A stretch of DNA of 64,000 nt, from the NCBI GenBank assembly GCA_973895155.1, contig OZ316891.1:27193561-27257560 (forward strand), given 5' to 3'. Positions 13,301 to 50,849 of the stretch are shown here, piece by piece (the first letter of the stretch is position 1; the number at the start of each line of letters is the position of its first letter). The notes beneath the pieces were generated by a model. It made no database searches. It saw only the letters and a list, made by a program, of their open reading frames with translations, and was not told the DNA's origin. The translations under genes were made by a program, and so were the position numbers. Source of the DNA: Marsupella aquatica. Lineage: Eukaryota; Plantae; Marchantiophyta.

Positions 13301-13807
13301 GTCGTCTTCGCTATGAGACCGCGAATCTGAGAAGTCCGAGGATGCGTTGCTTCCATTTTCTTCCTCTTCTTCCGATTCATTCCCTTCGTCCTCTTTTCCA
13401 GCTTCTGTATCACTTACGCTAGGAGATGCATTATCATTACCAATGCTTTTCACCATCACCGGGCTATCTTTCACAGGGGCTCCATTCGCTTGCATGGGAT
13501 ATCGGTCCTCGCTTTCCCCGTCTCCTCCATTCACGTCACTTTTCTCTTCCGCACCAGCTTCGCGCTCTTTGCCAGACGCTTCATCCAAATGAACAGAGTT
13601 CTCCCCTGCATCCTCTACCTCTGTATCTCCACTCTCGCTAGCAGACATGTCTTCGCTATCTCCTGCTTCCTCCTCTCCATCCACTTTCTCCGAATCGTCA
13701 CTGTCGCTGACAAATTGCGGAGCTGCTGCAGGGACTCGAGAAACAATCCCGGAACGCGGCGACCCCGCCGTGTCCGTTCTCCTTCTCAACTTCATTCTGG
13801 CCAGCAT
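7390..13807 (-). CDS. RAD54: DNA repair and recombination protein RAD54 (SNF2-family helicase, CHR25 orthologue), multi-exon
   Basis: Exons with GT-AG boundaries encode [82 protein letters not shown] and the terminal [13 protein letters not shown]. Exon 1 is 13807-13236 (alternative ATG at 13795); the last exon is 7851-7390, ending in TAG. Confidence 0.95.
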
Positions 13808-14879
13808 GCTGCTGCTGTACAGAGATTTGAGACACTGATACCACCCCTGCTGCGGCAATCGCGCACATCGCTCGATCTACAGCTTGATCGTCACGCTCGA
13901 TGTTCCCACTTGCACTCAAATTGTGGTGTCAATTCAGCTCTTTCCTTCGTAGCAGTGCAGGAAGCGCGATTTGGCGCCACGCGAGAATGTTCAAATTACC
14001 CGCAATTCATCCGAGAGGCCATCTTCGAGAAGACGCATCGAAGTAGCCTACCGCAGCAGGTTGCCTCACGAACTGTACAGCTTGTGCTATTCACTTTGCT
14101 AGTACTACAGAAGTGATTTGTATTTTTGATCTGCACTATCTGAGCTACTTGTGGTAGTACTGGGTTCAGGGCGTTCAGACTTTTATTTGAGTAGTGTACC
14201 GGGAAAGTTGTGAAATCAACAGGGTTTACTCTAATCAAACTAAATGAATAAATTATCCTTGTTTCGGTATGAGCTAACCTCGGGATGTAATTGACTAATA
14301 GCAAGGTTACATGCAGTAGAGGCGGGGGGGGAGCCCGTACTCGGGGCCCCTTGCTTCCAGCATTTTGGGAAGTAGTCGGGGTGACCTGCTCTACCTTCGC
14401 ATGGGGCGACTTTGGGCTGCTTCTCACCCCTTGCCCCCAATGCCCTCCAGTCTCCCTTCTCGTCCTCTGTTTTTTGGCAGTTTAAAATATATTACAGTAG
14501 TGATTTGTATTTTTGATCTGCACTATGGGAGCGACTTTTTTTGGCCTTTGAAAAAAATTATTTGAAATTCATCCAAATGCCAGTATACAACAGGGGTGGC
14601 CACAAAAGGGGTCAGCACAGGGGGAGGGCAGGGGGAACCAAAGGTTGGGCAGCCCAACGGACTGGAAATCCGGTCACCAGGAAAGAAGCAGGCCCAGCAC
14701 GAAGGGAGCCAAACAAGTCATGTAACTACAGCAGAAGGAGCGGCACACTCCAAAGACCGGCCAGTGGAGAAGTGCCACCAAGGCACCCAACAGTGGGTCT
14801 GTGACGCAAAACAATATTGGTCTAGCCTGCAGTTAAGCTTCTACTCTTGACTCATAGACTAAATCATGTGGGGTGAGGG

Positions 14880-15282
14880 TGTTGAGCATAGACGACGATC
14901 GCAACGGCAAGCCCATGAACCATCCAACGCACAATAGTCGACACAAGAGATACGTGGTTCACCTCCTTGAGGCTACGTCCACGGGAACACACAAGAGAGC
15001 TTTACTGAACTCTAAGCCCGTCGGCTATACCGAGTCTCCACAGTGTAAGCTCTCTCTATCTCTCAAGTGGCTCCATAACAATGAGCCTTGGTTTTACCTC
15101 TCCAAGCACACATGCCTCTTATGATATAGTGTGCAACTTAGTTGTACCTAACCACATAGTTGTACCTAACCACATAGTTGTACCTAATCACGTAGTTGTA
15201 CCTAACCACGTAGTTGTACCAACCCACGTTGTTGTACCAACCACGTCATACCTAACCTAGACGTAAGAGTAAATACCCAACA
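14880..15282 (-). repeat. 3' LTR of the copia element (403 bp, six ~18-bp internal units)
   Basis: Near-identical to 20936-21374; termini TGTTG...CAACA. Confidence 0.95.
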
Positions 15283-15473: not shown

Positions 15474-18400
15474 CTACTTGTGATGCAATTGCAAAACCTG
15501 CAATACGTCACGGTGTCTAGAGAAACTCTCCAAAGGAATCACTTTGGTAAATGCGTCAGCCGGGTTGAGTTTACCATCAATCTTGACTAGCTCAAACAAA
15601 TTATCAGACACAGCCTGCCTGATAAAATGGTACCTGACGTCAATGTGCTTCACTCTGCTGTCCATCACCTGGTTCACAGCAAGGTGGAGCGCACTTTGAC
15701 TATCACAATGGAGCTTCACATTCCCCTGTGGCAATCCCATTTCAATGATAAGTCTATCCAACCAAATCGCTTCCTTTGCTGCTTCCGCAGCTGCAACATA
15801 CTCCGCTTCTGTAGTAGACTGAGCAATACACTTCTGCAAAGTAGACCTCCAACTTATGCATCCACCGCCAAGTGTGAACACGTATCCTGTTGTTGATCTC
15901 CTTCGGTCCAAATCTTGTCCATAGTCAGAATCTACATAGTCAATCAATGATCTAGATTTCTTTGCATTCGCATCAAATAAAAGACCATGATCCACGGTAC
16001 CCTTCAAGTACCTGATAATCCACTTCACTGCTTCCCAGTGTACCTTCCCTGGATTCGACATGTACCTGCTCACCTTGCCCATAGCCATGGCAAGATCAGG
16101 TCTAGTGCAAGTCGTCAAATACATGAGACTCCCCACTGCCTTGTCATATGGAACCTTTGACATCAACCCCTTCTCTGTGTCATCCGTAGGACAGAACGCT
16201 GATGATAACTTGAAGTGTGGAGCCAACGGGGTACTTACTGGCTTGCTATTCTCCATGTTGAACCTTGCAATTACCTTCCTCGCATAACTGCTCTGCGTCA
16301 ACCATAGCTTGCCAGCCTCCAAGTCCCTAGTGATCTCCATACCCAAAATCCTCTTAGCAGGCCCTAAGTCCTTCATCTTAAACTCTGCACTAAGCAGTGC
16401 CTTGAGCTTAACAATCTCAGACCTATCCTTGGCTGCAATTAGCATGTCATCCACATAAAGTACTAAAACAATGAACCCAAAGACAACATTCTTCACCGGT
16501 TTCAAATACACACAAGGGTCAAATACACTTCTGTGAAAACCTTGTGACCGAATCCAATCGTCAAACCGCTTGTTCCACTGTCTTGGTGACTGCTTCAACC
16601 CATACAAGGATTTCAGCAATCTGCAAACCAATTCCTCCTGTCCTCTCTTCACAAAACCTAGCGGTTGTCTCATGAAGATCACCTCTTCCAATGTGCCATA
16701 GAGGAAAGTTGTGACAACATCCATCTGATCTAGGAGTAGACCAAACATTACAACAAGTACACACAATAGTCGTATTGTAGAGTACTTAGCAACTGGTGAG
16801 AAGACCTCATTGTAATCCACACCTTTCTCTTGTGTGAATCCCTTTGCTACCAATCTAGCCTTGTAGACCTTTGATCCACCTCCTATGGAATTATCCTTCA
16901 GCTTGTAAATCCACTTGCTGTCCACCACTTGCTGACCCTTAGGCAGCTTAACAAGCTCCCAAGTTTTGTTGTCCTTTAGTGACTGCATCTCCGTTTGCAT
17001 TGCTGCAGTCCACTTCTGCTTCTCCTTTGAAGCACTTGCCTCATGAAATGAAGAAGGTTCTCCTTCTTCCAAAATTAACGCATCACCCTCATCATCAGCT
17101 GTAAAATCATCCTCTTGCAGTTGAGATGAATCAACCCACTGTCCATACCTTGATGGAGCGCGTACAGTGCGACCAGATGTTCTTCTAGCCGATGACTCCG
17201 ATTGATCTGCGTGTGCTGGTACAATTTGAAGCTCAACAGCATCCACTTGCTGCTCACCAGCATCAACAAACTCCTCTGGTTCCTCTGGCACAGGAACCAG
17301 CTCCATAATTGGAGCAACTCCTTCTCTCCGGTCATGCACCTCATAACCAATCTCCCCCTCAACGAGATCCGGGATAGGAGATTTTCCTTTGTCAGTACGG
17401 GAGACCTGAGTATTCTCCCCCTCCTTTAATAATCTGGATTCATTGAAGGAAACATCCCTACTGACAACGAGCTTACAGGCAATAGGATCCCATAGCCTAT
17501 AGGCTTTCACACCACTCTGGTACCCAAGAAAAACACATTTCCTGGAGGTAGGATCCAACTTGGTCCTATTCTGCTTTGGTGTGAGAGCATATGCATCACT
17601 TCCAAAAATTACCAAGCCATGATAGTCTGCTTGCCGCTTATAGCGCATCTCAAACGGCGTTTTGAAATTGATAGCACTAGAAGGAGAAAGATTTACCAAA
17701 TAAGCTGCGGTATTGACAACTTCTGCCCAAAATTCTTGTGGTAAACCTGATTGGCTCAACATACTCCGTGACCGCTCCAACAGTGTCCGATTGAGCCTCT
17801 CAGCGACACCATTCTGCTGCGGAGTATAAACTGTGGTGAGATGGCGAGTTATGCCCTGTTCTGAACAGTACTCTTCAAATTCCATTGAAGTGTACTCCCC
17901 GCCGTTGTCTGACCTCAGACTCTTCACCCTTGTATCCAAACACTTGATCGTGTTTCCAGTCTGATTCTCCACCTGGGCCTTCCACTTCTTAAAAATGGAC
18001 AAGACATCAGACTTATGCGTCATGAAATAAATCCACACAAATCTTGAGTAATCATCAATAAATGATACATAGTACAACTTTCCAGAGTGTGAGGGAGTCG
18101 GGGATGGACCCCACACGTCACTATGTATGTACTCAAGAACCGCTTTGGAACGATGAGTTCCAACACCAAAAGCACGACGATGCTGCTTTCCAAGAATGCA
18201 ATGCTCACAAAACTCTAATTTACAAGATTGCAAATCAGAAATGAGTCCATTCTTCCGTAAGATAGCCAAACCCTTCTCACTCATGTGGCCTAGCCGTGAA
18301 TGCCACAGTTGAGTCATCTCCTCGTGAGACTTGGTTACATTGGCCTCTCCACATACAGTATTGCCCTGTAACACATACAAATTCTTTTGTCTACTCCCCT

Positions 18401-18746
18401 TCAAAATCACTGTCTCTCCCGACCTGACTTGAAGTTCACCATCAATAACGCTCCATTGATGACCATTTGAATCCAACACACCGAGTGAAATCAGATTCTT
18501 ACGCATGCCAGGTACATACCTGACTCCGGACACTGTGCGCACAGCGCCATCAAACATTTGAATCTTCACAGACCCAATTCCCTCAATTTGACAGGAGTGA
18601 TCATTTCCCATCAGAACTGAACCGTTTGAAATAGAGTAAGAACTGAAAAACTCACGAATGTAACAAATATGAAAAGAGCAAGCACAATCAAGAATCCACA
18701 CATCATCTGCTCTCCTAGATGACGTGCACAGGGCATACCCCCGGCT
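15474..18746 (-). CDS. Copia pol polyprotein (protease, integrase, RT, RNase H)
   Basis: WILDCACSFH, LWHSRLGH..CEHC, HSDVWGP, LRSDNGGEY, PQQNGVAER, YKARLVAKG, LYVDDML, KHIDVRYHF. The frame is open from the gag stop onward. Confidence 0.95.
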   Translation of the reverse strand, partial: SRGYALCTSSRRADDVWILDCACSFHICYIREFFSSYSISNGSVLMGNDHSCQIEGIGSVKIQMFDGAVRTVSGVRYVPGMRKNLISLGVLDSNGHQWSVIDGELQVRSGETVILKGSRQKNLYVLQGNTVCGEANVTKSHEEMTQLWHSRLGHMSEKGLAILRKNGLISDLQSCKLEFCEHCILGKQHRRAFGVGTHRSKAVLEYIHSDVWGPSPTPSHSGKLYYVSFIDDYSRFVWIYFMTHKSDVLSIFKKWKAQVENQTGNTIKCLDTRVKSLRSDNGGEYTSMEFEEYCSEQGITRHLTTVYTPQQNGVAERLNRTLLERSRSMLSQSGLPQEFWAEVVNTAAYLVNLSPSSAINFKTPFEMRYKRQADYHGLVIFGSDAYALTPKQNRTKLDPTSRKCVFLGYQSGVKAYRLWDPIACKLVVSRDVSFNESRLLKEGENTQVSRTDKGKSPIPDLVEGEIGYEVHDRREGVAPIMELVPVPEEPEEFVDAGEQQVDAVELQIVPAHADQSESSARRTSGRTVRAPSRYGQWVDSSQLQEDDFTADDEGDALILEEGEPSSFHEASASKEKQKWTAAMQTEMQSLKDNKTWELVKLPKGQQVVDSKWIYKLKDNSIGGGSKVYKARLVAKGFTQEKGVDYNEVFSPVAKYSTIRLLCVLVVMFGLLLDQMDVVTTFLYGTLEEVIFMRQPLGFVKRGQEELVCRLLKSLYGLKQSPRQWNKRFDDWIRSQGFHRSVFDPCVYLKPVKNVVFGFIVLVLYVDDMLIAAKDRSEIVKLKALLSAEFKMKDLGPAKRILGMEITRDLEAGKLWLTQSSYARKVIARFNMENSKPVSTPLAPHFKLSSAFCPTDDTEKGLMSKVPYDKAVGSLMYLTTCTRPDLAMAMGKVSRYMSNPGKVHWEAVKWIIRYLKGTVDHGLLFDANAKKSRSLIDYVDSDYGQDLDRRRSTTGYVFTLGGGCISWRSTLQKCIAQSTTEAEYVAAAEAAKEAIWLDRLIIEMGLPQGNVKLHCDSQSALHLAVNQVMDSRVKHIDVRYHFIRQAVSDNLFELVKIDGKLNPADAFTKVIPLESFSRHRDVLQVLQLHHK

Positions 18747-19781
18747 TCATAAAACATACTCATCATTGAGTAAATCAGCTTCTCCATCAGCCCTAGCCAC
18801 ATTTGCCGATGAAGTTTCCGCTGCCTTTCCCTTACAGTCTCGCTTGAAGTGTCCAACTTGGTTGCACTTCCAACATGTCACCTGCCTCCTCTGAGGGGAT
18901 TTACCCTTGGACTTAGATCTGGATTTAGATCTAAACTGGGTTCTACGGTCCCCAGTTGGTCGCTGCATACTCCTCCCATGGTTAACATTGAGGGCAGCAC
19001 CAGATGATGAAGGCTGTGACGTGATGTGCATCTTCTGCTGAAGATCATCACTAAGCAGAGAACTTACCACGTCATTGTATGAAATGGTATCCCTATCACG
19101 ATGCAACAACACTCGTGATAGGGACTGGTAGGATGGAGGCAATGAACTAAGAAGCTGCAGAGCCTTCGTCTCATCATTCAAAGTCTCCCCAAGGTTTTCC
19201 AAGTCAACGACCATGTCGTTGAAAGCATCCACATGGTCTTGCAACTTCGTACCAGATTTCTTCATCCTGAAACTCATCAGTTTGTAGGAAGTGTAGAGCC
19301 GGTTCGATAACTCCTTGCGGTGATACTTGCTCTGCAATTCCGCAAATAAGGACATGCAATCCTTATGTGCACCCAACTGCTTGATGATGGGAGGCATGAG
19401 ATAGAGTGTAACACACCACACTCCCTGCTCCTGCATGCGGTCCCATTGTTTCTCATCAACATCGTCTTCACGAGGGCTCAGCAGTTGGCCCATCCCTGAC
19501 GCATAAAGCACTCCCTTCACCTGCTTCTCCCATAGCAAGTAGTCAGAGCGCCCATCATACTTTGTCACTTCATACTTGGGTCCCCCAAGCTTGAAAGTCC
19601 CCATCTTCTTCTTTACCGTGAGCTCCGGTAGTAGTACTGCTTCCTCCACCACACGCCGCACCGGTGATGGTATCGGTGTTACGTGCTCTTCCTCCTGCTC
19701 CTCTCTCTGCCCCTGAAACCTCCACGGTGATCCTCGTGCTTCAAGTTCCACGTCTTCGAAAAACTCCTCCGAATCACTCAT
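18747..19781 (-). CDS. Copia gag
   Basis: YDGRSDYLLW, LLSSLPPSY and a CCHC zinc knuckle (CWKCNQVGHFKRDC). Ends at TGA in frame with pol. Confidence 0.93.
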   Translation of the reverse strand: MSDSEEFFEDVELEARGSPWRFQGQREEQEEEHVTPIPSPVRRVVEEAVLLPELTVKKKMGTFKLGGPKYEVTKYDGRSDYLLWEKQVKGVLYASGMGQLLSPREDDVDEKQWDRMQEQGVWCVTLYLMPPIIKQLGAHKDCMSLFAELQSKYHRKELSNRLYTSYKLMSFRMKKSGTKLQDHVDAFNDMVVDLENLGETLNDETKALQLLSSLPPSYQSLSRVLLHRDRDTISYNDVVSSLLSDDLQQKMHITSQPSSSGAALNVNHGRSMQRPTGDRRTQFRSKSRSKSKGKSPQRRQVTCWKCNQVGHFKRDCKGKAAETSSANVARADGEADLLNDEYVL

Positions 19782-20935
19782 ATGAGAAAGTCACAAAAAA
19801 TGTTGTTTTTCACAACTTCTCAAAAAACTCGAAACTCAACACCGCCGCGTAGCCCACAAAGCTAGGAGTCCAATACTGAAAACCAAAATCAAAATCGAAA
19901 TTTGACGGAAAAGTTATTCAAATTTCGGTCGAGGTGGGTAAAACCTTGGGAAACTCCCCCGTTTTGACCACCTCAGGGAATAACCGAAATACCAAGTACA
20001 ACCCGTTGTCGGAATTGCGATGTGATTGGTGTGCTGCATTGCCAACTTCAATGGCTACGACCTCGCCAAAAAATAACCAAAAAAGTTACCGTTCGGCGGA
20101 TGAAATCTTTGTCGGACGGTCAAAAAATAGCTCTCTGGTTTTTTGGAATATTCTATGACCCTTGTACAGGCCCTATAGGAATTTTGGAAGAACAATCGAG
20201 GGGCTGACATGTGTCCTCGAACCCCCAAAACCCCCTACCACCCTTCGTCGTCGAAATCTGGTCGCGCGCGCAGAAAATACACACGGCAGAATGTACCCCT
20301 CGACACCAAACGCAAGATATCTCACTCGGGTTTTGACTAAATCAAGATCCGATTTCAGATTTGGAAACTAGACTCCGAGGTGATGAAGATCGATATAAGA
20401 AGCACCCAAAACGAGGAAAGAACAAGGGAGAAAAAAATTGGTAAAGATGACAGATTTCTCTCAATTGCCATAGCCAATTTCGAATCAGTTTTTCAAAGAG
20501 AAAAAAATGGTACCTTGTCAACAACGAATGTTGATCAATTGCACTTGGTGCCGTCACCAAGTCCAACAAGGTAATTGATTTTGCTTAGCCTTCCTCTTTG
20601 CATCAAAGAGCCAATCCCGGACTCAAAAACAATCGTCTTGCCTCAATCTCTCCGTTGAGTCAAAACACTTGACGCTTCTCCCTCTGAGTCGATTGTCAAC
20701 TTTCTTCACAAAATCCAGAACGACGAAAACTTAGATCTCTCTGCACCACGAGCTCCGTTCAACGATTTCTTCACACCGTTAGAAAGCTCTTACCCTGATC
20801 TATCCGTTGAGCCCATAAACTCCAAGTTCCATGCGATGGAACTCTGGAAAATCCACCAACACTCAACGCTGGAAAAACCGTCATGAAATCCCGTCACGAA
20901 CACACGTCACCTCCCAAGCATGCTCTGATACCAAT

Positions 20936-22210: not shown

Positions 22211-23606
22211 TTGCAGCATTTCATGTTACTTTCATTAAACCTTGGCTTGATTGTCACATCTTACATGCTTAGTTAACTCGATCTTCCTTGTTGCAGCTCA
22301 TACAACTTATTTTGACACATTTTGCTCCTTGCTAAGAGTTCCTCATTGCTATTGAAGAGATTTTGTCTTTGTGTCTCAGACTTAGTGCATGGTTACAATA
22401 TGTTAAAGATAATACATTCATCTGTTTCCACATCAATATGCACTTGAAGTCCCTACAGGAAGTGGGACAATGATTGCATGTATTAGAGCAACCCTGGATA
22501 GACCCCTTGATTGGCTTGTACTCCAGGTGAATGTTTTTAACTTTTTCAACAAAGTCTTTTTGGGTAGCCATATTTTGTGGATTGATATCAGAGTTGTGGT
22601 TACAGACCCATTGTGATCCCCCAAAATCCAAGAAGATAGTTTAAAGAAGGTGGTCACTAGTGTATTTTGGTATCAGCACCATGAGCTCCCAATCAACTGG
22701 ACTGCAATATTATAAATAGCATTGCCAATAGATCTAAGGGTAAAATGTGATTACCCTAACTAAATACAGGTTGGGGGCAAAGAAAAGAGGGCCATAACTA
22801 GTCAGAAAGTGACATGTCCCCTGAAAGATATGTGAGGGGAGGATATATTCTGAAACTCTCACCAAATCATCAAACTGTTGTGATCAATTGAGACTTGTCC
22901 TTACTCCCTCTCCAACAATGAGCGGGGCAGTGAGTCAAAGAGTAGCATCAGGCGTTCATGCATTCAAGGGGAAGCGCTAGTGGAGGTTGTGGCTTCTGAC
23001 TTAAGGTGCGCCCAAGGTGTGCGTGGTCCCAACGTGTTGTTTCTGCAGTACGTCAATTATTTTTTTGTCATTGTCTGGGGCCCATAGACACTAGTTTGAG
23101 AATCACAGGTGATCTCAAGGAACTAGTGGATCCACATGAAGTGGACGGCGAGAGCCACTAGAGGGTTTAGTGAGAGAGCCGAAGTGAGAGCCGAAGTGAG
23201 AGCCGAAGTTTGGTGCTCGGAGGTGAGTCGGAGGTGGGAGGGAGGAGATGCGTTGTTCGCGAGAGTAGGTAAGCCGAGGGCGCGGAAGGAGGGGCAAGGG
23301 AGCAAAGACTTGAAGATTAAATCTCTAGAAATCTCTACATGAAATCTGTTTTGAAAGACTCCTTCCTTTCCTGATCGAGATCTTCGGAATCCGCATAAAC
23401 GTTGCAAGAAGCTCAATTGCTGCGGAGGCAACGAAGCCGGGAGCGATGTGGATGGTTATTCCGCTGCAGAGCCGGAGATTTCTTCTTCTGACTTTTTGGA
23501 TTAGTGGCTCGAAAGGCACGAGTGGAATTGGAGGTCAGTGATGACGCCCTGAATTTTGGCCCTCCTATGCTTCTGAGAACAATTTCGGCAGTAGGATTCT
23601 TCTGAA

Positions 23607-26985
<3,379 letters not shown>

Positions 26986-33819: not shown

Positions 33820-36637
33820 CACTGTTTTTTGTTTGGCACTGTTTGGAGAACACGCAATGTTTGAGAGAGAGACAAGGGGACAGTTTTGAGATTTCGTGAC
33901 TCAATTTGGGTTGTAACTTTCTCCGGGAGTTTTGGATTTGGGAGTTCTTGATGGCTTTGGAAAGCTCTTGGCGAGGCGGTGAAGATCGATACGACTTGCA
34001 CCCCAAACGGTCACCGTATGAGCGAATTACATCAGATTTAAGTTTCGCTGTTTTTTCACTTTTTCTGCACGTTTGGCAATTTCGACGATTTTGCGACTCA
34101 ATTTGGGTCGTAACTTTCTCCGGGAGTTTCGGATTTGGGAGTTTTTGACGGCTCTGGAAAGATCTTGGCGAGGCGGTGAAGATCGATACGACTTGCGACC
34201 CAAACGGTTACCGTATGAGCAAGTTACATCACTTTTCACGTGCAGAAAAAGTGAAAAAACGGCGAAACCTAAATCCGATGTAACTCGGTCATAGGGTGAC
34301 CGTTGGGGGCGCAAGTCGTATCGATCTTCACCGCCTCGCCAAGATCTTTCCAACGTCAAAAACTCCCAAATCCGAAACTCTCGGAGAAAGTTACAACCCA
34401 AATTGAGTCGCGACATCGTCGAAATCGCCAAACGTGCAGAAAAAGTGAAAAAATAGCGAAACCTAAATCCGATGTAACTCGGTCATAGGGTGACCGTTGG
34501 GGGCGCAAGTCGTATCGATCTTCACCGCCTCGCCAATATCTTTCCAAAGCCGTCAAGAACTCTCAGATCCGAAACTCCTAGAGAAAGTTACGACCCAAAT
34601 TGAGTCACAAAATCGCCCAAATCGCCAAACACGCAGAAAAAGTGAAAAAAACGACGAAACTTAAATCCGATGTAACTTGCTCATACGGTAACCGTTTGGG
34701 GCGCAAGTCGTATCGATCTTCACCGCCTCGCCAAGATCTTTCCAACGTCAAAAACTCCCAAATCCGAAACTCTCGGAGAAAGTTACAACCCAAATTGAGT
34801 CGCGACATCGTCGAAATCGCCAAACGTGCAGAAAAAGTGAAAAAATAGCGAAACCTAAATCCGATGTAACTCGGTCATAGGGTGACCGTTGGGGGCGCAA
34901 GTCGTATCGATCTTCACCGCCTCGCCAATATCTTTCCAAAGCCGTCAAGAACTCTCAGATCCGAAACTCCTAGAGAAAGTTACGACCCAAATTGAGTCAC
35001 AAAATTGCCCAAATCGCCAAACACGCAGAAAAAGTGAAAAAAACGACGAAACTTAAATCCGATGTAACTTGCTCATACGGTAACCGTTTGGGGCGCAAGT
35101 CGTATCGATCTTCACCGCCTCGCCAAGATCTTTCCAACGTCAAAAACTCCCAAATCCGAAACTCTCGGAGAAAGTTACAACCCAAATTGAGTCGCGACAT
35201 CGTCGAAATCGCCAAACGTGCAGAAAAAGTGAAAAAATAGCGAAACCTAAATCCGATGTAACTCGGTCATAGGGTGACCGTTGGGGGCGCAAGTCGTATC
35301 GATCTTCACCGCCTCGCCAATATCTTTCCAAAGCCGTCAAGAACTCTCAGATCCGAAACTCCTAGAGAAAGTTACGACCCAAATTGAGTCACAAAATCGC
35401 CCAAATCGCCAAACACGCAGAAAAAGTGAAAAAAACGACGAAACTTAAATCCGATGTAACTTGCTCATACGGTAACCGTTTGGGGCGCAAGTCGTATCGA
35501 TCTTCACCGCCTCGCCAAGATCTTTCCAACGTCAAAAACTCCCAAATCCGAAACTCTCGGAGAAAGTTACAACCCAAATTGAGTCGCGACATCGTCGAAA
35601 TCGCCAAACGTGCAGAAAAAGTGAAAAAATAGCGAAACCTAAATCCGATGTAACTCGGTCATAGGGTGACCGTTGGGGGCGCAAGTCGTATCGATCTTCA
35701 CCGCCTCGCCAATATCTTTCCAAAGCCGTCAAGAACTCTCAGATCCGAAACTCCTAGAGAAAGTTACGACCCAAATTGAGTCACAAAATCGCCCAAATCG
35801 CCAAACACGCAGAAAAAGTGAAAAAAACGACGAAACTTAAATCCGATGTAACTTGCTCATACGGTAACCGTTTGGGGCGCAAGTCGTATCGATCTTCACC
35901 GCCTCGCCAAGATCTTTCCAACGTCAAAAACTCCCAAATCCGAAACTCTCGGAGAAAGTTACAACCCAAATTGAGTCGCGACATCGTCGAAATCGCCAAA
36001 CGTGCAGAAAAAGTGAAAAAATAGCGAAACCTAAATCCGATGTAACTCGGTCATAGGGTGACCGTTGGGGGCGCAAGTCGTATCGATCTTCACCGCCTCG
36101 CCAATATCTTTCCAAAGCCGTCAAGAACTCTCAGATCCGAAACTCCTAGAGAAAGTTACGACCCAAATTGAGTCACAAAATCGCCCAAATCGCCAAACAC
36201 GCAGAAAAAGTGAAAAAAACGACGAAACTTAAATCCGATGTAACTTGCTCATACGGTAACCGTTTGGGGCGCAAGTCGTATCGATCTTCACCGCCTCGCC
36301 AAGATCTTTCCAACGTCAAAAACTCCCAAATCCGAAACTCTCGGAGAAAGTTACAACCCAAATTGAGTCGCGACATCGTCGAAATCGCCAAACGTGCAGA
36401 AAAAGTGAAAAAATAGCAAAACTTAAATCTGATGTAATTCGCTCATACGGTGACCGTTTGGGGCGCAAGTCGTATCGATCTTCACCGCCTCGCCAAGAGC
36501 TTTCCAAAGCCGTCAAGAACTCCCAAATCCGAAACTCCCAGAGAAAGTTACGACCCAAATTGAGTCGCAAAATCTCAAAATTGTCCCCTTGTCTCTCTCT
36601 CAAACAGTGTCTGTTCTCCAAACAGTGCCAAACAAAA
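33820..36637. mobile_element. Non-autonomous fold-back element, probably CACTA/CACTG superfamily, filled with a 196-bp satellite
   Basis: Left end CACTGTTTTTTGTTTGGCACTG. A ~70-bp unique cap is inverted at both ends. About 2 repeat units run in one orientation (to ~34230) and about 12 in the other. Confidence 0.7.
34235..36570 (+). repeat. Tandem satellite, ~196-bp monomer in a 392-bp higher-order dimer
   Basis: Identical ORF translations recur at 34600, 34992, 35384, 35776 and 36168 (period 392), with alternating monomer variants. Confidence 0.97.
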
Positions 36638-38621
36638 GGCGACACATGATCCTAAGACAAAAAAACCCAATTAAGGGGGGACAACCAAAGCGCCAAAAAT
36701 CCAGAAGGACCAGAGAGAAGCCGCCCAACAGAAGAAGCCCAACACAAGAATCACCAGGGACAGAAAAATATAAGGACTGTGTTGCATGTGCAAAAGTACT
36801 TTAAAAAGTTGCCCTTGACTGGCCCACAACAGACAGGAAAGAAAGTATGACCAAATCAAAGCACAATACTCCAATGCAATCCATGCTCACACTCAGTACT
36901 GTTTCCTCCTTTGTAGTTTCAGCCCCTTTGTCATTATCAGTGTATTTTTTTTGTTTATGAATTTGAAAGGTGGGGACTATAAAGGGCCGGAAACTTTAGG
37001 GCCGTTGCCCTTGAAAAAACTGAATTGCTGCCATATGGACTGACACACAAGGAGGGTGAGGCAGGAAAGGCTCAAAGAGTAAGCATGTGCCACCTGATCT
37101 GTTAAAGGGTCGATAATTTGGGGACCCTCACATGCAAGATGGCCCTAAAACCCTACCTATTCTCAAACTTACAAGCCTGGTAGAGCTCGGGTGTGAACTT
37201 CATAGGAGGGTCAAGCAAGGGCATCCTACATGACTTACAGATGAACTAAATCTAAAACAATTTGAATAGGTGACCAATCTTGAGACCCTGATGAGGAACA
37301 CACAAAGAATCTTGGCCAAAGGATACAGAATTCTCTAAAATCTAGCCTGCCACACTTGCCCAAAATGAAAATTTGAGAATTTTAGATTAAAAAACAAATT
37401 GAAAAATATGTTGAAAATTTTTATGTTTACCAAAAAACATAATTTGATATTTTCTGTGCCAAGGGAAGACTGGGATTAAATTGCAATATTTTTTATGCAA
37501 TGATGTCTTTCAAGCAATGAAACGCTAAATGCAACACCTCACTTGTTGAATGGTCTCAGTCTTTAACATAACAATTTGTTTTAATACATACTAATATCTT
37601 TTGCATAGCGACATCTTTTGAAGGCTTTGGTAGTAGGCTTACTGTAATTACTTTCTATGGTTTCAATGGAACTTAACACTGGCAATGGCATAAGAAACTC
37701 TTGCTCTGGTCTTTCCAAAGAACCTGCAGAGTATTTTGATAAAGCTGGCAACTTGTGAAGGTAATTTGATAGTGTAGCTAATAAAATGCAATCGAAAGCT
37801 ACTCCTTGGGCTTATTGTCTAGAGTGAAGTCTCTAGACACTGACCCTAACCTAGGTCATACCTGAATATCTCACTTATAAAGTGCAAACAAAATTTAGAT
37901 TGGGGTCTAGACTTCTAGAGAGTAACTTTAGATAAAGACAAACTAATGTTATGAATACATCGCAAACATAAGCTACTTTTGAAGGTGAGGGTCTCATGTA
38001 AAACCTCTATACCATAACTCCAAATATGGACAAAATTGAACTAAAAAATAAGGACAAAGTAAGGGTGAACAAAAAAATGAGATGGGGCAAATATAAACAA
38101 GATATAGCATATAATTCTTTCTTTTGCTAGTTCTTTTTTTTGTCTTCATTGCTATTTACAATCAAGGAAGGGATAATCAGGCTAGTAAGGGCAATACAGA
38201 AAGTGAATACCAAAAACATGGAGGGGCAAAAATGAAGGCAAACAACATAGATTCTTTTGCAGGACTTTTTTTTGGTCTTATCTCTATTAATATTCAAAGC
38301 ATGGGCATTAAGGTTCCTAAGGATGCAAGTGAAGACCACAATGCCAATATTTGAACACAAGGCGCCTCTCGGAGTACAAAAAATGAAAACATATTGTAAA
38401 ATTTGAATACAATTTCCAGTGGCATTATTTGAATAAAGCTCCCCATGTCAATTCGAATACAATAAGGCCATGGCGTTCACGTGAAGACAGTAGTGTTTCC
38501 CGAGATTCGTCACTCCCCTTTTCTCTTCCTCCCCCTCTGTTTCTTCCGCCATTCAGTGGGATGCATGAGCATGTATTCTTGTTAAACTACTCCCTGTCGG
38601 TAGTCTGTACACGACAATACG

Positions 38622-38780
38622 TATAGGGTAACGACGATCCGGTCGACCGTTACTGGGGTGTAACGGGACGACCGGGTTCTGACACAGGCGTGACCGGCGG
38701 GAGCCGAGAGCGCCTGGGGAGGAAACCGGGAGCCCCGGTACACCCCAGTAATGGACGGCCTGGATCGTCGTTAGCGTACG
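38622..38780. mobile_element. ~150-bp hairpin mini-element (putative non-autonomous partner of the tyrosine recombinase element)
   Basis: Imperfect ~34-bp inverted repeat TAACGACGATCC..GG..TTACTGGGGTGTA (38629-38662 vs 38739-38773). TACGTA occurs at both sides. Confidence 0.65.
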
Positions 38781-39414
38781 TAATCGCGATCTAGGTTTCA
38801 GGTTCACCGGCTCCTGCAAGTTGAAACACTCTGGGTCATTGGATCAAGTAGACGCTGCATCGGGACCGTCAATTCAATTGCAGTGAAGGGGGGAGGGGGT
38901 ATTTTGCGGATAGGGCGGGCTGCACTGTTTTGTCCCGATGTTGAACAAGATTGAACGAGACGGAGTTGGGAGGCTGCAGCAAAGCGCCGCGCGATCCGGC
39001 AGGGAGAGGCGAAGCTCGGAGACTGCAGGCTGCAGCGAAGCGCTGCGCGATCTGGCGGGGCAAGGTGATGCAGTGGCGATGGTGGTGGTGAAAGCTTGGA
39101 GATGGTGGCAGGATGGAGTGCAGCTCGTTTGAGCTGGTTTGAAACCAATGCGACTGTGTTGCGACCAGGGGGAGCTTTCCATTTTCAATTTTGATTTCTT
39201 TTGAATATCTTCAGGCGCCATGCATTGTTTGCAGATCATGGATAGCGGGGTGGAAGCAAGTGCAGCATTGAAGTGGAGTGTGGTTATATCATTTGATTGC
39301 TTGTTGTTGAGTTGTAGTACTTATGCATTGCTTTCAATGTTGAGTAGTCAAATGGCTGTAGCGGCTGAGCAACTCATCTCGTTTGGAGTGATCTGTGAAG
39401 TAGCTCGTATCAAG

Positions 39415-41635
39415 ATGGAGGGAGAGTTAAGCGATGGAGTTGTTCCTGGCGATTATTCAGACGCTGAGAGGGAGATGTTTTATATGGATGATTTGAGTGT
39501 TGACGGGGAGACTTGCGATCTTTCAGAATTTGATTCGGCCACTGCATTTGATGAGGCATCTAAAGAAGCTGTTTCTTTAGATGTATTTTCTACTTTGGTC
39601 GAACCTAATCGAGAGCTTGTCAATGAGGTTGAGAGTGGGCTGCAGGTTGCTGAGCAGAACCATTCGGATCAAGCGGATGCAAGTTCATCCGGCTTGAGGC
39701 AGGATCTATTGGAAGTAAGCCTGCCAGGCTTGAGACTCCTGCCTGATCCTGCTTTAGAGGAAGCAGGGCGAGGATTGGAGAAGTTGCCATCCGCATGGAA
39801 CGACCAGTGGGCTGTGAGGAGGGCTGACGGGTTGCGTAAGGGGATGGGGTGGGACTTGAGTGTTGCATTTGGAGACTTGTTGCTTGTGCAGGTGGACGAG
39901 TTGCTCAGCAACTATTTTGCTCGAGCAGTGAAGAAAGACGGTAATGTTTACCCATCATCTTCACTCATGAACCAAATGAATAGCTTCAATCGAGTGTTGA
40001 GGCGAGGGAGTGATCTGAGATCGCTGAAGGGTTCTTCTTACATTCTGCCGAGAGATTTCAACATCAACTCACATCCAGCCTTCTCAAGAACTCGAATGGT
40101 GTTGAAAGCGGCCATCAAGAAGTCTGCGAAGGAGGGGGCTAACAAGAAACGAAAGAAGGTGAGAGCTGCCAACTTGCATTGTCTTTAAAGATGTTGTGTG
40201 CTTGTAGACTTGTCTGCTGCTTCTGACTTTTGGATGTTCTGGTCCAGGTTGAGATATTGACAGAGGAGCACGAGAAAGCTATTATGGCTGACATTGACCA
40301 CCAAGTGACAAGCAGCCATGGATGTCAAAAGCGCTTGGCATTTTACTGTCTGGTCAGGCTTGGCATTCGTGGAGGTGGCGAGCTCTATGATCTACATAGA
40401 GGCGACTTATCTGTATGCATCGACAAGGCAGGAAGGAACTATGTGCAGTAGGTGTTTTTTGTCTAGTTTGATATTTCCGTTTCTAAGATGTAGCTTTTTT
40501 GTATTTGTTTATTGTCTGGCAATGATACTAATAAACATTTGAATTTGTTCAGGTTTGAGGAGCGCCAGAGTAAGAATAACTCTTACATGCTGGATCGGTA
40601 CAACGAAGAGCAGTTTCGAAAGATGTATCATAGTTATGAAGTCGATTTTGTGTTTACTGTGAATCAGTACAAGCGCCATTTATCTCCAGAAGCAGAGTCG
40701 TCGAAGCCTGACCTCTTTATGCAGACAATTACCAATCCTGCCAGGAATGTCTGGTATAATAAAGTCCACAAGGTAGGGAGAGATACTGCCGCTCACTGGC
40801 TTAAGAATATGTTGGCGCTGGTGGGGCTGCCACCTGATCTCTTTTCAAACCGAACTGGAAGGACCACACTAATCTCTCGACTAGCTGCAAAAGGAGTCCC
40901 TGATGTGGTTGGTATGCTTATTAGTGGGCATCATTCAACCGGAGGTTATTCACGTTACGACAAAACACAAGAACTTAAGATGGAAGCTGCAGCCCTGGTC
41001 TCTGCTAGTCCAGGCCTTGATTATGAGAAGGCTCTTGGACATGTTTCAAAATCCTTTGTCCGAGAGAAGCTTGTTGGATCATCCGAGGGTCTGAAACCCC
41101 TTGTTGACAGGGTGAACGAAAAGGCCAATGTGCAGCCTTCACTTTTGACACTTGTACAGGTATGTCAACGAACTTTGATTTGTTTGTGAGTGAGGTTTCT
41201 TGGTATTGTTGCTAATGGGAATGTTGTTGGTTGGCAGGGATCTACAGGTTCAAGTGGAGTACTAGGAGAAACATCAGCAAGAGCTTCAGAGCAGGTTTGT
41301 TTGTAGTGATTTTGCATGACTGTCGGTTGTTGCCTGTCATGCAAGACTGAGATTAATGTTTGTTTTGTGTGTGGCAGGATGGAAGCCACATTGTTGGGGA
41401 TATGTTAGTACAAAGGGCAGATGCTGCCAGATGGGATTCGTCCTATGACGGAATTGATTGGGTGGGCGAGTTATTGAAGCAGAACCCTTTGCTTCACGAG
41501 AAAATTTCAGGCCCAACACCAGCCAGAGTTTCTGTGGGCAGCAATATGTCTGGAAATTCCTTCCACAATTGTTCAGTATCAATTAAAATTGTCAAGGCAG
41601 GGGAGGAGGATGAGAAGGAGAACGCAGGCCACTGA
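39415..41635 (+). CDS. DUF3504/Crypton-type tyrosine recombinase, ~621 aa, 5 exons
   Basis: Exons 39415-40158, 40248-40447, 40553-41159, 41238-41294 and 41378-41635 join in frame with GT-AG sites. Motifs: VKKDGNVYPSSSL, GIRGGGELYDL, EERQSKN, VWY..VGRDT, NRTGR, SGHHS..GYSRY, C-terminal FHNCSVSI. The start could lie further upstream (ORF open from 39220). Confidence 0.85.
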
Positions 41636-42179
41636 GATTGTAGTTAGTGATATTGTACTTAGTTTTTCAGATATTGGATCTGATTTAGAAACCACCGATG
41701 TAATACTCTAGTTAGTTTTCAGATCAGTATCCTGATGGACAGAAATACCATTAGCAGGAAATAACAGTAAGCTAGTAGGAACATTATACATATCAGCAAT
41801 TTACTGATATGGCTATATGAGCGTACCTATGTACATCAAGAATGGTTTTACTATTCGGTTAAACTTTGCATGACTCCCGGCCATGAATAAAGTGGAATTT
41901 TTTGAGTACTTAACTTCTTCCAATCACTGTTCGCGTTCAATACTTAAAGTCAATAAAAGTTTTACGACTCCAAACTCTCCAAACACAATGCTGAAACATC
42001 ACCAAATAGAAAAATTGGACACAAGCCTGATCATAACTTGTTTAGGACAATTCCGATTAACCTATTCTGAAGGATGGACTATGCCAATTGGATGTACACG
42101 TATGGACCTGTGTATGGATGGAAAATGTGTTCGGGACGGTACATATAAGGTGGATGAAATACTGATTTTCCATCCAGTA

Positions 42180-42278
42180 GTTATAGGGTTCCGTAGCTGC
42201 ATTACGGGATTCCGTAGCCAGGTTACAGAGTTCCGTAGCCCGGTTACAGCATTCCGTCACCCATGTTACAGAGTTCCA
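42180..42278 (+). repeat. Subterminal 21-bp degenerate tandem repeat (~5 copies)
   Basis: GTTACAG(A/C)(G/A)TTCCGTAGCC-type units about 75 bp inside the right inverted repeat. Confidence 0.8.
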
Positions 42279-43451
42279 AAATGTCAGCCGGGTCAGGAAG
42301 GGAGATTACGGAAATACAGGGACCACCCAAAATAGGTTACAAATGTAGGTAACCTGAAACCAAGACCGCGATTACGACTCAGCAGTCAGCCACTTGAGGC
42401 AGCCCCCGCCCCGCGCCCCGCCCCGCCCGGCCCCGCGCAGGGAGGCTCCGAGGACAGATTTGAACTTCCGAACAGCACGGGCTCGAGTGGTACCTCTCTC
42501 CATCTCTCTCTCTCTCTCTCTCATTCTCTCTCGTGTGGCACGAACGAATGATCTTAGAAGACCGGCCTGTGGAGCATTAATCGCTCCTTGAGGCTTGGAC
42601 TTCGGAGACTCTCCGAGATTAGTCGCGGTTGCGTTGTGACGGACGGAGTGGCTGGCTGCAGTAAGCAGTGGAGCAGTGGAGCGGCTATTTTAATGGAGGG
42701 CCTGACGATTGAGCTGGAACGCGAGCTTCGATTTCAGGCGCCGTTGCAGTTTGCATTGTCCTATGAGATGGACGGACTCACTGACGTCAGGCAGTCTCTC
42801 AGCCGATGTGAGCAAAGAGCTGCTGCGCGGGATTGAGCGAAAGGAGCACCTTGGCAGCTGCTGTTGTTGCATTTGTGCTTTCTAAGGGTGGGAACTCTCT
42901 CAAGAGGCTCTTGTTGTCAACGAAAGGTTTCCATGGGATCGAAGGAGCGCTTCTGAGCTGGCGATTACTCTGTACTGGATCGAAGTAGCCGTTTTCAGGA
43001 GGCTTCCGATGTGGTCTAGCTCAATTGCAGTGGTGCAGGAGGACTCTGTGGGTTCTTCTGATGGACTGACCTGAGGAAGCCGCGACGGAGAACCGTAATG
43101 AAGTTCTTCTGTACTTGTCTTACGAGAGGAGAAGTGTAAACCGTCCCAGAGTAGATAATCCCTAAGTAAGAAATGCAAGAGAGACAGAGCAGCTACTCTT
43201 GAGTGATTCAAAGGTTAATGGAGGTTTATGGAGGATTTTACAGGATTTTGGATTGGCGAGTTTAGACGACGATGAACTTCATGTGTCAACGGATGGATTT
43301 GTCATGAAAGGACTCACAGAGACAGTCACTTACATTTAGGCATCTCGGAGGAAGACCATTTTGTACGATAATGTGTCGGAAGGAATGATGAGATTACAAA
43401 GAGTGACGGATTCGGGATGAGGTGATCAACTCTTTCAATTCCGCATCATCA

Positions 43452-48085: not shown

Positions 48086-49315
48086 CTATTTCAGAGGCAG
48101 AGAGTTCTCATATGCTTCGACGGAGAGTCTCTCTAGTCTGGTGAGCATTTGTTGGTACATACTCTCAAATTGAATGACCCTTGATCCGCCCTTAGCGTCT
48201 GCTGACTCATTTACGGGTAAACTACCAAGATCATCTTCATAAGCACTTCTGCTACTCTTCCCACCGTTGTTATCCAACAATGTGGCAGATTTCCCGGAAC
48301 TGCTTCTTTCTACTCCGCTTCGAAGCTGAGCTGGGGACCCGCCAGCACTGGTTTCTAAATCCAATTTAGAATTGAACCATGATGGAATCGAAGCAACGGG
48401 AACAAATGAATCATAGAACCCCCGAAGAACACCAGCATTGACAATGTTCACGGGAAGCGGTTCAAATTTGATACCTTTAGGGTTTTTGAGGGATTGAAAA
48501 GCCCTGTACTCATGGGTCCTTACAGATTTGTTAGTGGAGTCAGACTCTGTGAACAACACAAAAAAGCAAGGAGCGATTGGTGTTATATTGTCCACGACAG
48601 GCTCGATTCGCATCTCTTGACGAGGGCTGGAGATACTATTACTGCTCCTCCTGCTGGGAGAAGCGCTCATGGTGGGAGAGCCAGGAATCTCCAACGTTAG
48701 CACCGATGGCTTGGCTGCTGCTGCTGCTGCTGCTGCTCCTGCTGCTCCTAAACCCCCCACTCTCCCTGTCTGTGGGATACTGTCTACAGGTGTCAATGAG
48801 GGGCTCCTTCGAGTGCCAGTAAGGCTTGTAGATGAGGGTTCACCTCCGAGTACACTGCCTACTTGTCCAATATTCAATTTAGAGGGATTAGCTGCATCTT
48901 CTTCTGCCACAGGCGGTGCGATGATTCCGGATCGAAGAGATGTGGTGACGGCTACTTCTCTCATAGACGGCCACAGGCTGGAATTCCTCCTACCAAGGTA
49001 CCACCCGATGGGCGGATCTTCTCCTCGGGATTGCCTTTCTCTAACAATATTCGACAGCTTAGAATGGTTGAGCCTGCCGGTGGCGTCGTAGAAGCTGAGG
49101 ACACGACCAGAGCAGTAGTAGCCAGTAACCCTAGCAGTGATCTGCTCGTGAGTGATTGCCGGCCCAGCCGAATCGTCCTGCATGTTGGATGTTGTCTGGT
49201 GCTGCAAACGCCCGAATAGGAGCCCATCGCAGTCCCCTTCCACTGAGCCAAAATCATGCATGATTTGCGCCAATGTGGGTCCTGCAATTGCGAAGCTTCC
49301 TGCCGATGTCTCCAT
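48086..49315 (-). CDS. BRCA1-A/BRISC complex subunit Abraxas (FAM175)-like MPN-minus protein, intronless CDS
   Basis: FAIAGPTLAQIM..DCDGLLFG, SFYDATGRLN, IGWYLGRRN..PSMREVAVT, CFFVLFT, THEYRAF and a C-terminal coiled-coil segment ESMYQQMLTRLERL. Confidence 0.8.
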   Translation of the reverse strand: METSAGSFAIAGPTLAQIMHDFGSVEGDCDGLLFGRLQHQTTSNMQDDSAGPAITHEQITARVTGYYCSGRVLSFYDATGRLNHSKLSNIVRERQSRGEDPPIGWYLGRRNSSLWPSMREVAVTTSLRSGIIAPPVAEEDAANPSKLNIGQVGSVLGGEPSSTSLTGTRRSPSLTPVDSIPQTGRVGGLGAAGAAAAAAAAKPSVLTLEIPGSPTMSASPSRRSSNSISSPRQEMRIEPVVDNITPIAPCFFVLFTESDSTNKSVRTHEYRAFQSLKNPKGIKFEPLPVNIVNAGVLRGFYDSFVPVASIPSWFNSKLDLETSAGGSPAQLRSGVERSSSGKSATLLDNNGGKSSRSAYEDDLGSLPVNESADAKGGSRVIQFESMYQQMLTRLERLSVEAYENSLPLK

Positions 49316-50849
49316 ACTCGCATCTAGTTGCACCAAAATTGAAGAACCCTGCTCGAAAGCTCTCTTCTATCTATCTATCTATCCCGCGCCCTGAAGTTCG
49401 ACAAGACAATAATGATCACAGCTTCATTCCCAGGGCTATTTCCCCTAAAATCCTCGGCAACAGGTTGCACATCTGGAACAGTGGGAAAGCTTGGTTCGGC
49501 ATAGAATGTTCAACGGAGAGACTTCTCAACCATCCAAACTGTCCAAACCGGCTCTCGTTAACAGTTCCGTTACTTCTCATGAGCATCCGCCCTCATTTAG
49601 TGACAGGAATTAACATTAAGCAGTGATTGAGCCCTAAAAATGGGGCTGTGGTTCCCCCGGAACTGTGTGGACGAGGCAGCATCCAGACTCCAAAATCTAA
49701 CACGCACACTTGCGTCGCTACAATAAACAATCTCCCCTTCAGGATTGTAGGCACTCAATTCCTCTCCGGAACAAGTCATCAGTGGCTTAACTCCGAGGAT
49801 TGGAGGATTTCCGAAACGCATTCCAGGTCTGCACTGACTCTAGCAGAGAAGAGTCAAATTAGGGTTTATACGCTGTAGAAGAAGACCATCCGACCTGGTG
49901 GCATGAGAGTAGTCTTCTGCCACGAAAGCAACGGAGCAGGCCGTGGAGATCCTGGAAAACGACAAATCTCGATGAGAATAGAGACAGAGAGAAGCAGAAC
50001 AGATTTTGAAATTATGTGAGGGACGAGAATCGACGCAAACATGGAGCTCAGACAGAAATTGGCGGACAATCTGCCGTCCGGTAGCATGGATCATCGTGTG
50101 TTCCACCGGTCAGGAAATATATTCTCGGCTATAAACGGTGGCTACATACCGATAATAAATTCCGCCATCCGTCACCAGAGCTCTGGCGCGATAGATTGAA
50201 CTCAATGAAAAAGAGAAAAAGTTGGAATAACCCCTATCGAAATATAAAAGCAAGGACCAAGAAGAGAAGAAGAAACACATTGACGAAGCGGTCTGGGAAG
50301 CTCCACTTCCAACGAGACTCTCGAATGATTGAACTGTTCCATCCACGGAAACACGAAGTATCCAAACAACAACAAGACCAAAGTATCTAGGGAGCAGTGT
50401 CACAAAAACAAAAACAAAAACAAACAAAAAAAACAGGTAGACATCCAGCAAGAACAGAATGTCTACACATAACGTGGGTACCTCGTTTGGTTGATACAAC
50501 AATCTTCTCGAATGATCTGTATTAAGAATGGTCCCCGAACTGTCTGCTCTCCACCAATCTCAAGAATTGCCATGGGCGGGTCTCCCAAGCTATGATAATC
50601 GACACTACGTACTTGTTAAACAGACAAATTCTATCCTACTGATGGTTTCTGCGCTTCTTGTTGTCTTTCTCCCGTCTCATCCACTTCAAGGACACTTTCA
50701 AACTGCGGACGAAGGGAGCAGACAGCGAAAGTCTTCGGTTCTATGTGCAAGTTTAGGAACCTTGTGTTCTGTTTTAGGCTTGAAACCGAAAGCAGACCCA
50801 ACAATTATGAACCTTGTATTCTCTCAATGAGAATTGAGGGTTCAAATAT

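Follow-up and report, generated by a model that had tools for sequence, protein, structure and literature searches.

A stretch of 64,000 nucleotides from the liverwort Marsupella aquatica (contig OZ316891.1; hereafter the window) raises the question of what kind of structure places a short hairpin next to a recombinase gene with an apparent recombination site between them. According to the first-pass annotation, positions 38759–38795 hold two inverted 15-bp arms, complementary at 11 of 15 positions, around the 7-bp spacer GCGTACG, and this dyad joins a hairpin "mini-element" to a separate recombinase element. The sequence reads as claimed, and the geometry is that of a tyrosine recombinase (YR) core site, for which the accessible text of PMC3212892 gives a spacer of 6–8 bp. 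Taken by itself, the score of 11/15 is at chance level: the window contains 21 dyads of at least 11/15 with a 7-bp spacer, and 17–21 for each spacer length from 5 to 9 bp. The surroundings, however, are beyond chance: there is a hairpin, a 26-bp repeat recurs at the right end, and the two ends, once joined, match the internal segment.

Based on the features collected in Table 1, we suggest that the hairpin, the dyad and the gene very probably form one element of 3.76 kb (38618–42376), of which the "mini-element" would be the left end. This reading is preferred because the repeat starts at about 38618, pieces of other copies cross the spacer, and neither arm stands beside foreign DNA among the listed pieces. 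Judged by its sequence, the dyad is in all likelihood the centre of an internal inverted copy of the circle joint of the element's two ends.

Table 1. Proposed organization of the element and predicted exons of its recombinase gene (window coordinates).
Feature	Position	Strand	Remarks
Whole element, Crypton-like tyrosine-recombinase DNA transposon	38618..42376	+	about 3.76 kb; putative order A - loop - A' - B' - gene - B
TACGTA at left end	38618..38623	.	first four bases, TACG, recur at right end as short direct repeat
TATAGGG	38622..38628	+	inside element; together with CG would give a 9-bp spacer at the circle junction
Arm A, left half of terminal hairpin	38629..38690	+	50/62 pairs with A' are Watson-Crick; outer 12 bp perfect
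Inner dyad in arm A (TTA - 8 bp - TAA)	38639..38675	.	weaker; matrix scores 3.7–7.0; mirrored around 38741–38748
A' + B', probable internal inverted copy of joined ends	38711..38804	-	77/96 identical columns
Reported dyad	38759..38795	.	probable centre of internal junction copy: arm A' + 7-bp spacer + arm B'
7-bp spacer	38774..38780	.	first and last base show G>A variants; indels absent among variant rows listed
B', inverted copy of right end	38779..38804	+	24/26 complementary to 42351–42376
Exon 1	39220..40158	+	start codon uncertain; N-terminal region and core-binding helices
Exon 2	40248..40447	+	first catalytic Arg (R354, RGGGEL)
Exon 3	40553..41159	+	K387, R480 (His position), R483, H506, Y515; 61% identical to P0001
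Exon 4, predicted	41238..41294	+	GT-AG and open frame
Exon 5 to stop, predicted	41378..41635	+	C-terminus resembles P0001
Subterminal 21-bp tandem repeats	42178..42283	+	possibly degenerate arm copies, minus strand
B, right end	42351..42376	-	ends in TACG (42373–42376)

The boundaries were examined in contigs of four public runs, from two organisms and two studies, which were aligned to the region; the best DNA run may derive from the same sample as the window and does not count as independent. In these contigs, the element occurs in multiple, diverged copies. Its left edge was set by contig starts and depth: repeat depth rises at 38617–38630, not at 38781, a collapsed 71-nt contig of depth 39 begins exactly at 38618, and foreign DNA precedes 38617 or 38621 in seven of the 32 pieces listed (of 106). 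The right edge is less well supported than the left and was set by the end of the 26-bp repeat, by one contig ending at 42376 and by falling depth; this contig, identical to the window, stops exactly where the 26-bp repeat ends, and the depth drops beyond it. The window copy carries the 4-bp direct repeat TACG at both termini (38618 and 42373). Its left motif is common to other insertions in the contigs, and the right-end repeat is known from the window copy alone. TACGTA, which occurs five times in the 64 kb, also brackets the hairpin (38618 and 38777).

Of the 32 listed pieces (of 106), eleven extend from the hairpin through the spacer and reach the second arm. Judged by where they break, these spacer-crossing pieces fall into about six types of sequence and show as many as 32 differences over 181 bp; the loose end of one further piece carries a decayed dyad that keeps the register (20/30 by eye). 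Among 40 of the 101 variant rows, the spacer shows only G>A at its first or last base, and none of the six indel rows falls inside it. The dyad is passed on as part of the element, being present in diverged copies of both organisms. Among the listed pieces (32 of 106) and loose ends (24 of 60 rows), neither the right arm of the hairpin nor the second arm was found beside foreign DNA, and no solo hairpin with a target duplication occurred. The idea of a junction between two separate elements is not supported by these data: the repeat begins at 38617–38621, and no free right end of the "mini-element" or left end of the larger one is listed. Given the extent of these lists, solo hairpins may still occur among the other pieces and loose ends. 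Short contigs drop rare forms, and the left flank is uncovered in organism B. No circle junction, empty site or flipped hairpin appeared among the listed joints (15 of 50 in one contig set and one in another). A contig of run X1 has a joint from 42374 to 42347 with 17 letters between, which may be a copy with a duplicated right-end arm. On the left, the element adjoins a distinct AT-rich high-copy repeat (38000–38400) with high depth and many loose ends.

The relationship between the ends and the dyad becomes apparent when B is joined to A over TACG and compared with the minus strand of 38711–38804, to which the joined ends are identical in 77 of 96 columns. A 56-mer of this end junction reached a local score of 61 on the element body, whereas 200 pieces of 3.6 kb drawn at random from the window gave no more than 21. 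The termini A and B match each other at only 8/15 and 11/24 positions, so they are not long inverted repeats of one another; the long inverted repeats run between each end and the internal copy. Each arm agrees best with its own end (A:A' 12/12, B':B 11/12; cross pairs 7–8/12). With TTA/TAA taken as inner edges, the spacer measures 7 in the real dyad, 9 in B joined to A, 14 in the hairpin alone and 2 in the gene-bearing part alone, and therefore a YR-sized site needs one A arm and one B arm. There is also a rival register, in which B joined to B' gives 13-bp arms around the 6-bp TACGTA, itself a canonical site. It should be noted that an A-A'-B'-B layout arises automatically from any two tandem inverted-repeat elements.

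The hairpin is evident from BLAST (E 1e-19) and from folding, with a plus-strand z of -10.4 (none of 200 shuffles folded as well) and a minus-strand z of -7.7; both strands fold. The two ends co-fold into two adjacent stems at -92.7 (plus) and -81.4 kcal/mol (minus). Rfam gave no match in 38000–43000. A 150-aa ATG frame (41883–42335, plus strand) passing through the 21-bp repeats had no Pfam match at the cut-off and is probably not a gene.

The arm motif had been reported from all four element ends, in a form that includes a GG. The shorter form, TAAnnnCG(A/G)TC, does occur at all four places (38629 forward, 38773 reverse, 38781 forward and 42374 reverse) and nowhere else in the 64 kb. The strict form TAAnnnCG(A/G)TCnnGG matches three of them, the GG at 38629 lying one base earlier, and two of the four places are internal rather than element ends. 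An arm weight matrix revealed no strong further sites: the best outside match scored 12.2 vs 19–21 for the four training sites, for which the value is circular, and only one copy of the 21-bp tandem repeats at 42178–42283 scored above 3. Two inner dyads of the form TTA-8 bp-TAA (38639–38675 and 38726–38763) lie in inverted orientation inside the hairpin, and their spacer letters vary among other copies. The degenerate dyad pattern had one match among the metagenomes (contig L001, 3400–4600), which we regard as chance, as it lies inside an unrelated AT-rich virus-like reading frame without hairpin or recombinase. Protein-based scans for loci with flanks confirmed nothing in viral or metagenome contigs.

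The gene to the right had been called a tyrosine recombinase, and this identification is borne out. Five predicted GT-AG exons (39220–41635) join into a single open frame of 686 aa, which would encode the element's only enzyme; its other frames had no Pfam match at the cut-off. The predicted protein is 51% identical over 608 columns to protein P0001 of Calypogeia fissa, its closest homolog. For P0001, an alignment-based model with core pLDDT mostly above 85 replaced a single-sequence fold with pLDDT 33. The top fold match of this model is Cre (Foldseek E 1e-6; Z 17.6, rmsd 7.4 over 294), with XerA tied (Z 17.2) and the Tn1549 integrase also among the matches (Z 13.2). In the atlas, the P0001 core falls with DUF3504/phage-integrase clusters (0.98; TM 0.78). 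Pfam DUF3504 gave no match at the cut-off for the window exons or P0001, the relatives scoring below the cut-off, and a phmmer search of P0001 against solved structures returned nothing. By atlas and profile, the predicted recombinase is CryptonA-related; it is filed as no closer than that because the DUF3504 cut-off was not reached.

The catalytic residues R354, K387, R483, H506 and Y515 are present in the predicted protein, and the His of R-H-R-Y is Arg. Among 43 aligned rows, this position holds Lys in 30, His in 8 and Arg in 4. The HxxR His is thus replaced by Lys or Arg in 34 of the 43 rows (exon 3, region 40854–40865, and relatives); type IB topoisomerases likewise carry Lys or Arg in place of this His. 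An exon-3 search yielded 114 relatives, and the named ones among the 20 examined were from C. fissa and Adiantum ferns. A FastTree tree with an arbitrary root was built from 162 columns of 43 rows (four DUF3504-positive proteins and the sequences spanning 140 aa or more of the catalytic region). The window protein and the named plant proteins fell into a clade of 35 of the 43 rows (support 0.93), apart from the four DUF3504-positive proteins. One member of this clade, P0071 from Adiantum capillus-veneris, has PPR repeats fused to the recombinase, which may be a gene-model artefact.

Based on the organization described above, we propose a route of mobility in which the internal copy would serve as a splint on which a single strand folds for one exchange, in the manner of integron attC sites; we give this mechanism about an even chance. 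One strand of the element would be exposed, e.g., during replication, and A would pair with A' and B with B'. The internal copy would then hold the two ends next to each other, creating a duplex site of one A and one B arm with a slightly mismatched spacer (7 against 9 nt). The recombinase would carry out one strand exchange within the common TACG and release a closed single-stranded dumbbell, and the copy on the other strand would be retained. A further single exchange would bring the folded circle into another TACG-like site, with replication or repair resolving the product. Such a one-strand exchange would account for the one-sided spacer homology, the tolerated 7/9 mismatch, the retention of the copy and the gain in copy number.

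The accessible texts of several papers offer background for this route. [quoted passage not shown] Several observations count against the splint model, including the listed joints, none of which shows a circle or an empty site. The hairpin stem is 81% paired, and there is no real wobble strand bias (G.T vs A.C: 3 vs 1 in A:A' and 0 vs 1 in B':B). The 26 variants listed in 38658–38780 include one compensatory pair and five that restore pairing, and most others break or weaken it, the partners being unphased. CryptonF-1 also shows clean excisions, according to the available part of bioRxiv 10.1101/2022.05.23.493040.

Other explanations need to be weighed against this one. The dyad may be a real duplex recombination site inside the element, although we consider this rather unlikely. 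In the excised circle, it would be inverted to the end junction, and recombination between the two would flip the 150-bp hairpin segment, possibly for Flp-like circle amplification or as an accessory synapsis site; Flp flipping amplifies the yeast 2-micron plasmid. The canonical 7-bp spacer and conserved arms, the TACGTA common to both sites and the Cre-like enzyme suggested by the model are consistent with a duplex site. However, strand-change joints and flipped copies are both absent from the contig listing, arm-specific complementarity over 62 bp and 26 bp exceeds what a binding site requires, and a two-exchange YR reaction normally refuses spacers of unequal length such as these (7 vs 9). 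Of similarly low probability is a fossil tandem integration, in which the ends of an ancestral unit (38777–42376) would join into the 13-bp arms around TACGTA, a small hairpin element would have integrated at this TACGTA, and the pair would then have spread as a passenger-laden unit. TACGTA on both sides of the hairpin (38618, 38777) and the 24/26 match of B to B' speak for it, as does the fact that tandem integration into att sites is normal for YRs. Against it, neither unit occurs alone among the contigs listed, copies with as much as about 18% divergence still have the dyad, as do both organisms, and the arms of the hairpin are out of register with TACGTA. The left end also keeps its CpGs (observed/expected 1.34 over 193 bp only vs 0.53 in the gene region).

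The first-pass annotation had further suggested that the three 7-mers outside the arms (TATAGGG, GCGTACG and CGACTCA) would fit the coupling sequences of a homology-independent, Tn916-like system; in such a transposition, they would have been taken from donor flanks. The letters are as reported and all three differ; Tn916 and Tn1549 likewise combine a YR with inverted end arms, and the Tn1549 integrase, as mentioned above, is among the fold matches (Z 13.2). Nevertheless, coupling sequences of Tn916/Tn1549 vary with each donor site, whereas two of the three 7-mers here are constant components of the element. In diverged copies, GCGTACG is unchanged in length and almost unchanged in sequence; TATAGGG is internal to the repeat, where seven of the 32 pieces listed (of 106), those carrying foreign flanks, align across it. 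CGACTCA, unlike the other two, is mostly host flank. Because two of the three belong to the element and are conserved, the coupling proposal is unsupported, and with the 4-bp direct repeat at both ends, we consider a Tn916-like route very improbable. Equally slim are the chances that the hairpin is an ordinary DDE-type MITE that landed at the end of the recombinase element with a TA or TACGTA duplication. It is flanked by TA and TACGTA and has the size and fold-back of a MITE, but its outermost bases mismatch (GGG vs CGC), the arm motif is common to the hairpin and the right end, and the hairpin never occurs without B' among the listed pieces.

Returning to the dyad as an internal copy of the joined ends of one element, we compared this design with known systems. 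The element is a Crypton in the broad sense used in the accessible text of PMC13465315. It resembles the CryptonA/DUF3504 group in its single intron-bearing YR gene, the DUF3504-like fold and relatives and the many copies, and it has, like Cryptons, a short direct repeat at both ends, which fits a homology-using Crypton model. It differs from the CryptonA group in the terminal hairpin with the internal junction copy, in the land-plant host and in the R-H-R-Y His, replaced by Arg in this protein and by Lys in most clade members. As far as the available texts go, animal Cryptons have no terminal repeats (Kojima and Jurka 2011, PMC3212892), and no boundaries are reported for Glomhoppers (PMC13465315).

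The closest likeness to the internal segment is the ICR of DIRS-1. In the accessible parts of PMC7192593 and PMC3266345, it is of similar size (85–130 bp, here 94 bp), one half is complementary to the left end and the other to the right end, the two overlapping at a short junction motif, and the integrase is a YR. According to the same sources, the DIRS-1 segment lies beside the 3' end, not the 5' end as here, and its complementarity is near-exact rather than 80%, with a trinucleotide overlap in place of TACG(TA). No gag, reverse transcriptase or RNase H frame was found in 38618–42376, and long inverted terminal repeats as in DIRS are absent from the element; a DIRS identity was rejected on these grounds.

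Integron attC sites and strand-biased circularizers would share the proposed principle of a YR acting on one folded strand by one exchange, with replication-dependent resolution and a donor copy that is kept (accessible parts of PMC3458562 and PMC9345347). The attC systems differ in being bacterial and using other enzymes, and here the site would be built from ends 3.6 kb apart and an internal splint. Short end microhomology is also found in the Starship Hephaestus (TTAC) and in CryptonF-1_cRei (CAYCG), as described in the available portions of bioRxiv 10.64898/2026.09.21.753150 and 10.1101/2022.05.23.493040. In the printed junction of Hephaestus, the microhomology lies, by eye, at one spacer edge between inverted arms, as predicted here. 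Both belong to other YR families, and the same portions do not mention an internal junction copy.

In the open-access literature as accessible to us (Repbase, subscription papers and supplements lying outside the search), we found no description of an internal junction copy in a Crypton; an internal end-junction design is described there only for DIRS retroelements. No report of Cryptons in liverworts or ferns was found in the open-access texts available (Repbase and subscription papers being outside the search), and a plant genome review mentions Cryptons, in its accessible part, only in general terms (PMC11630846). The present data place Crypton-like elements in liverworts and ferns. It is conceivable, though we lean slightly against it, that seedless land plants harbor a so far undescribed clade of Crypton-like elements whose mobile form is folded single-stranded DNA, with both ends splinted by the internal junction copy for one exchange, so that a tyrosine recombinase would achieve copy-and-paste without reverse transcriptase or HUH enzyme.

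CryptonA ends were not found in the papers as available, and active CryptonF copies increase there although the model is one of cutting and reinsertion. The window copy offers an intact predicted gene, readable ends and a concrete testable substrate. If true, the proposed mechanism would give eukaryotes a counterpart to integron recombination and would account for the copy gain of Cryptons. A plant-native Cre-like recombinase with a defined site could also be a useful tool.

The element lies among other repeats and host genes. An intact-looking Copia element (15474–19790, minus strand) has gag and pol in the same frame with a single stop codon between them, which may be a readthrough signal or a nonsense change, and 18-bp tandem arrays at 15139 and 21195 are probably in its LTRs. 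A satellite-like array (34238–36574) consists of about 12 copies of a 194-bp unit with a higher-order period of 392 bp (98% matches). Exons near 11575–13876 (minus strand), without Pfam confirmation, look by eye like a RAD54-type helicase, which we presume them to encode. An Abraxas-type MPN protein is encoded at 48086–49366 (minus strand) and an ecdysoneless/SGT1 protein at 23595–26664 (plus strand). The ecdysoneless product points to a leafy liverwort as the most likely host: it is 86% identical to that of Calypogeia fissa and about 47–49% identical to those of Sphagnum.
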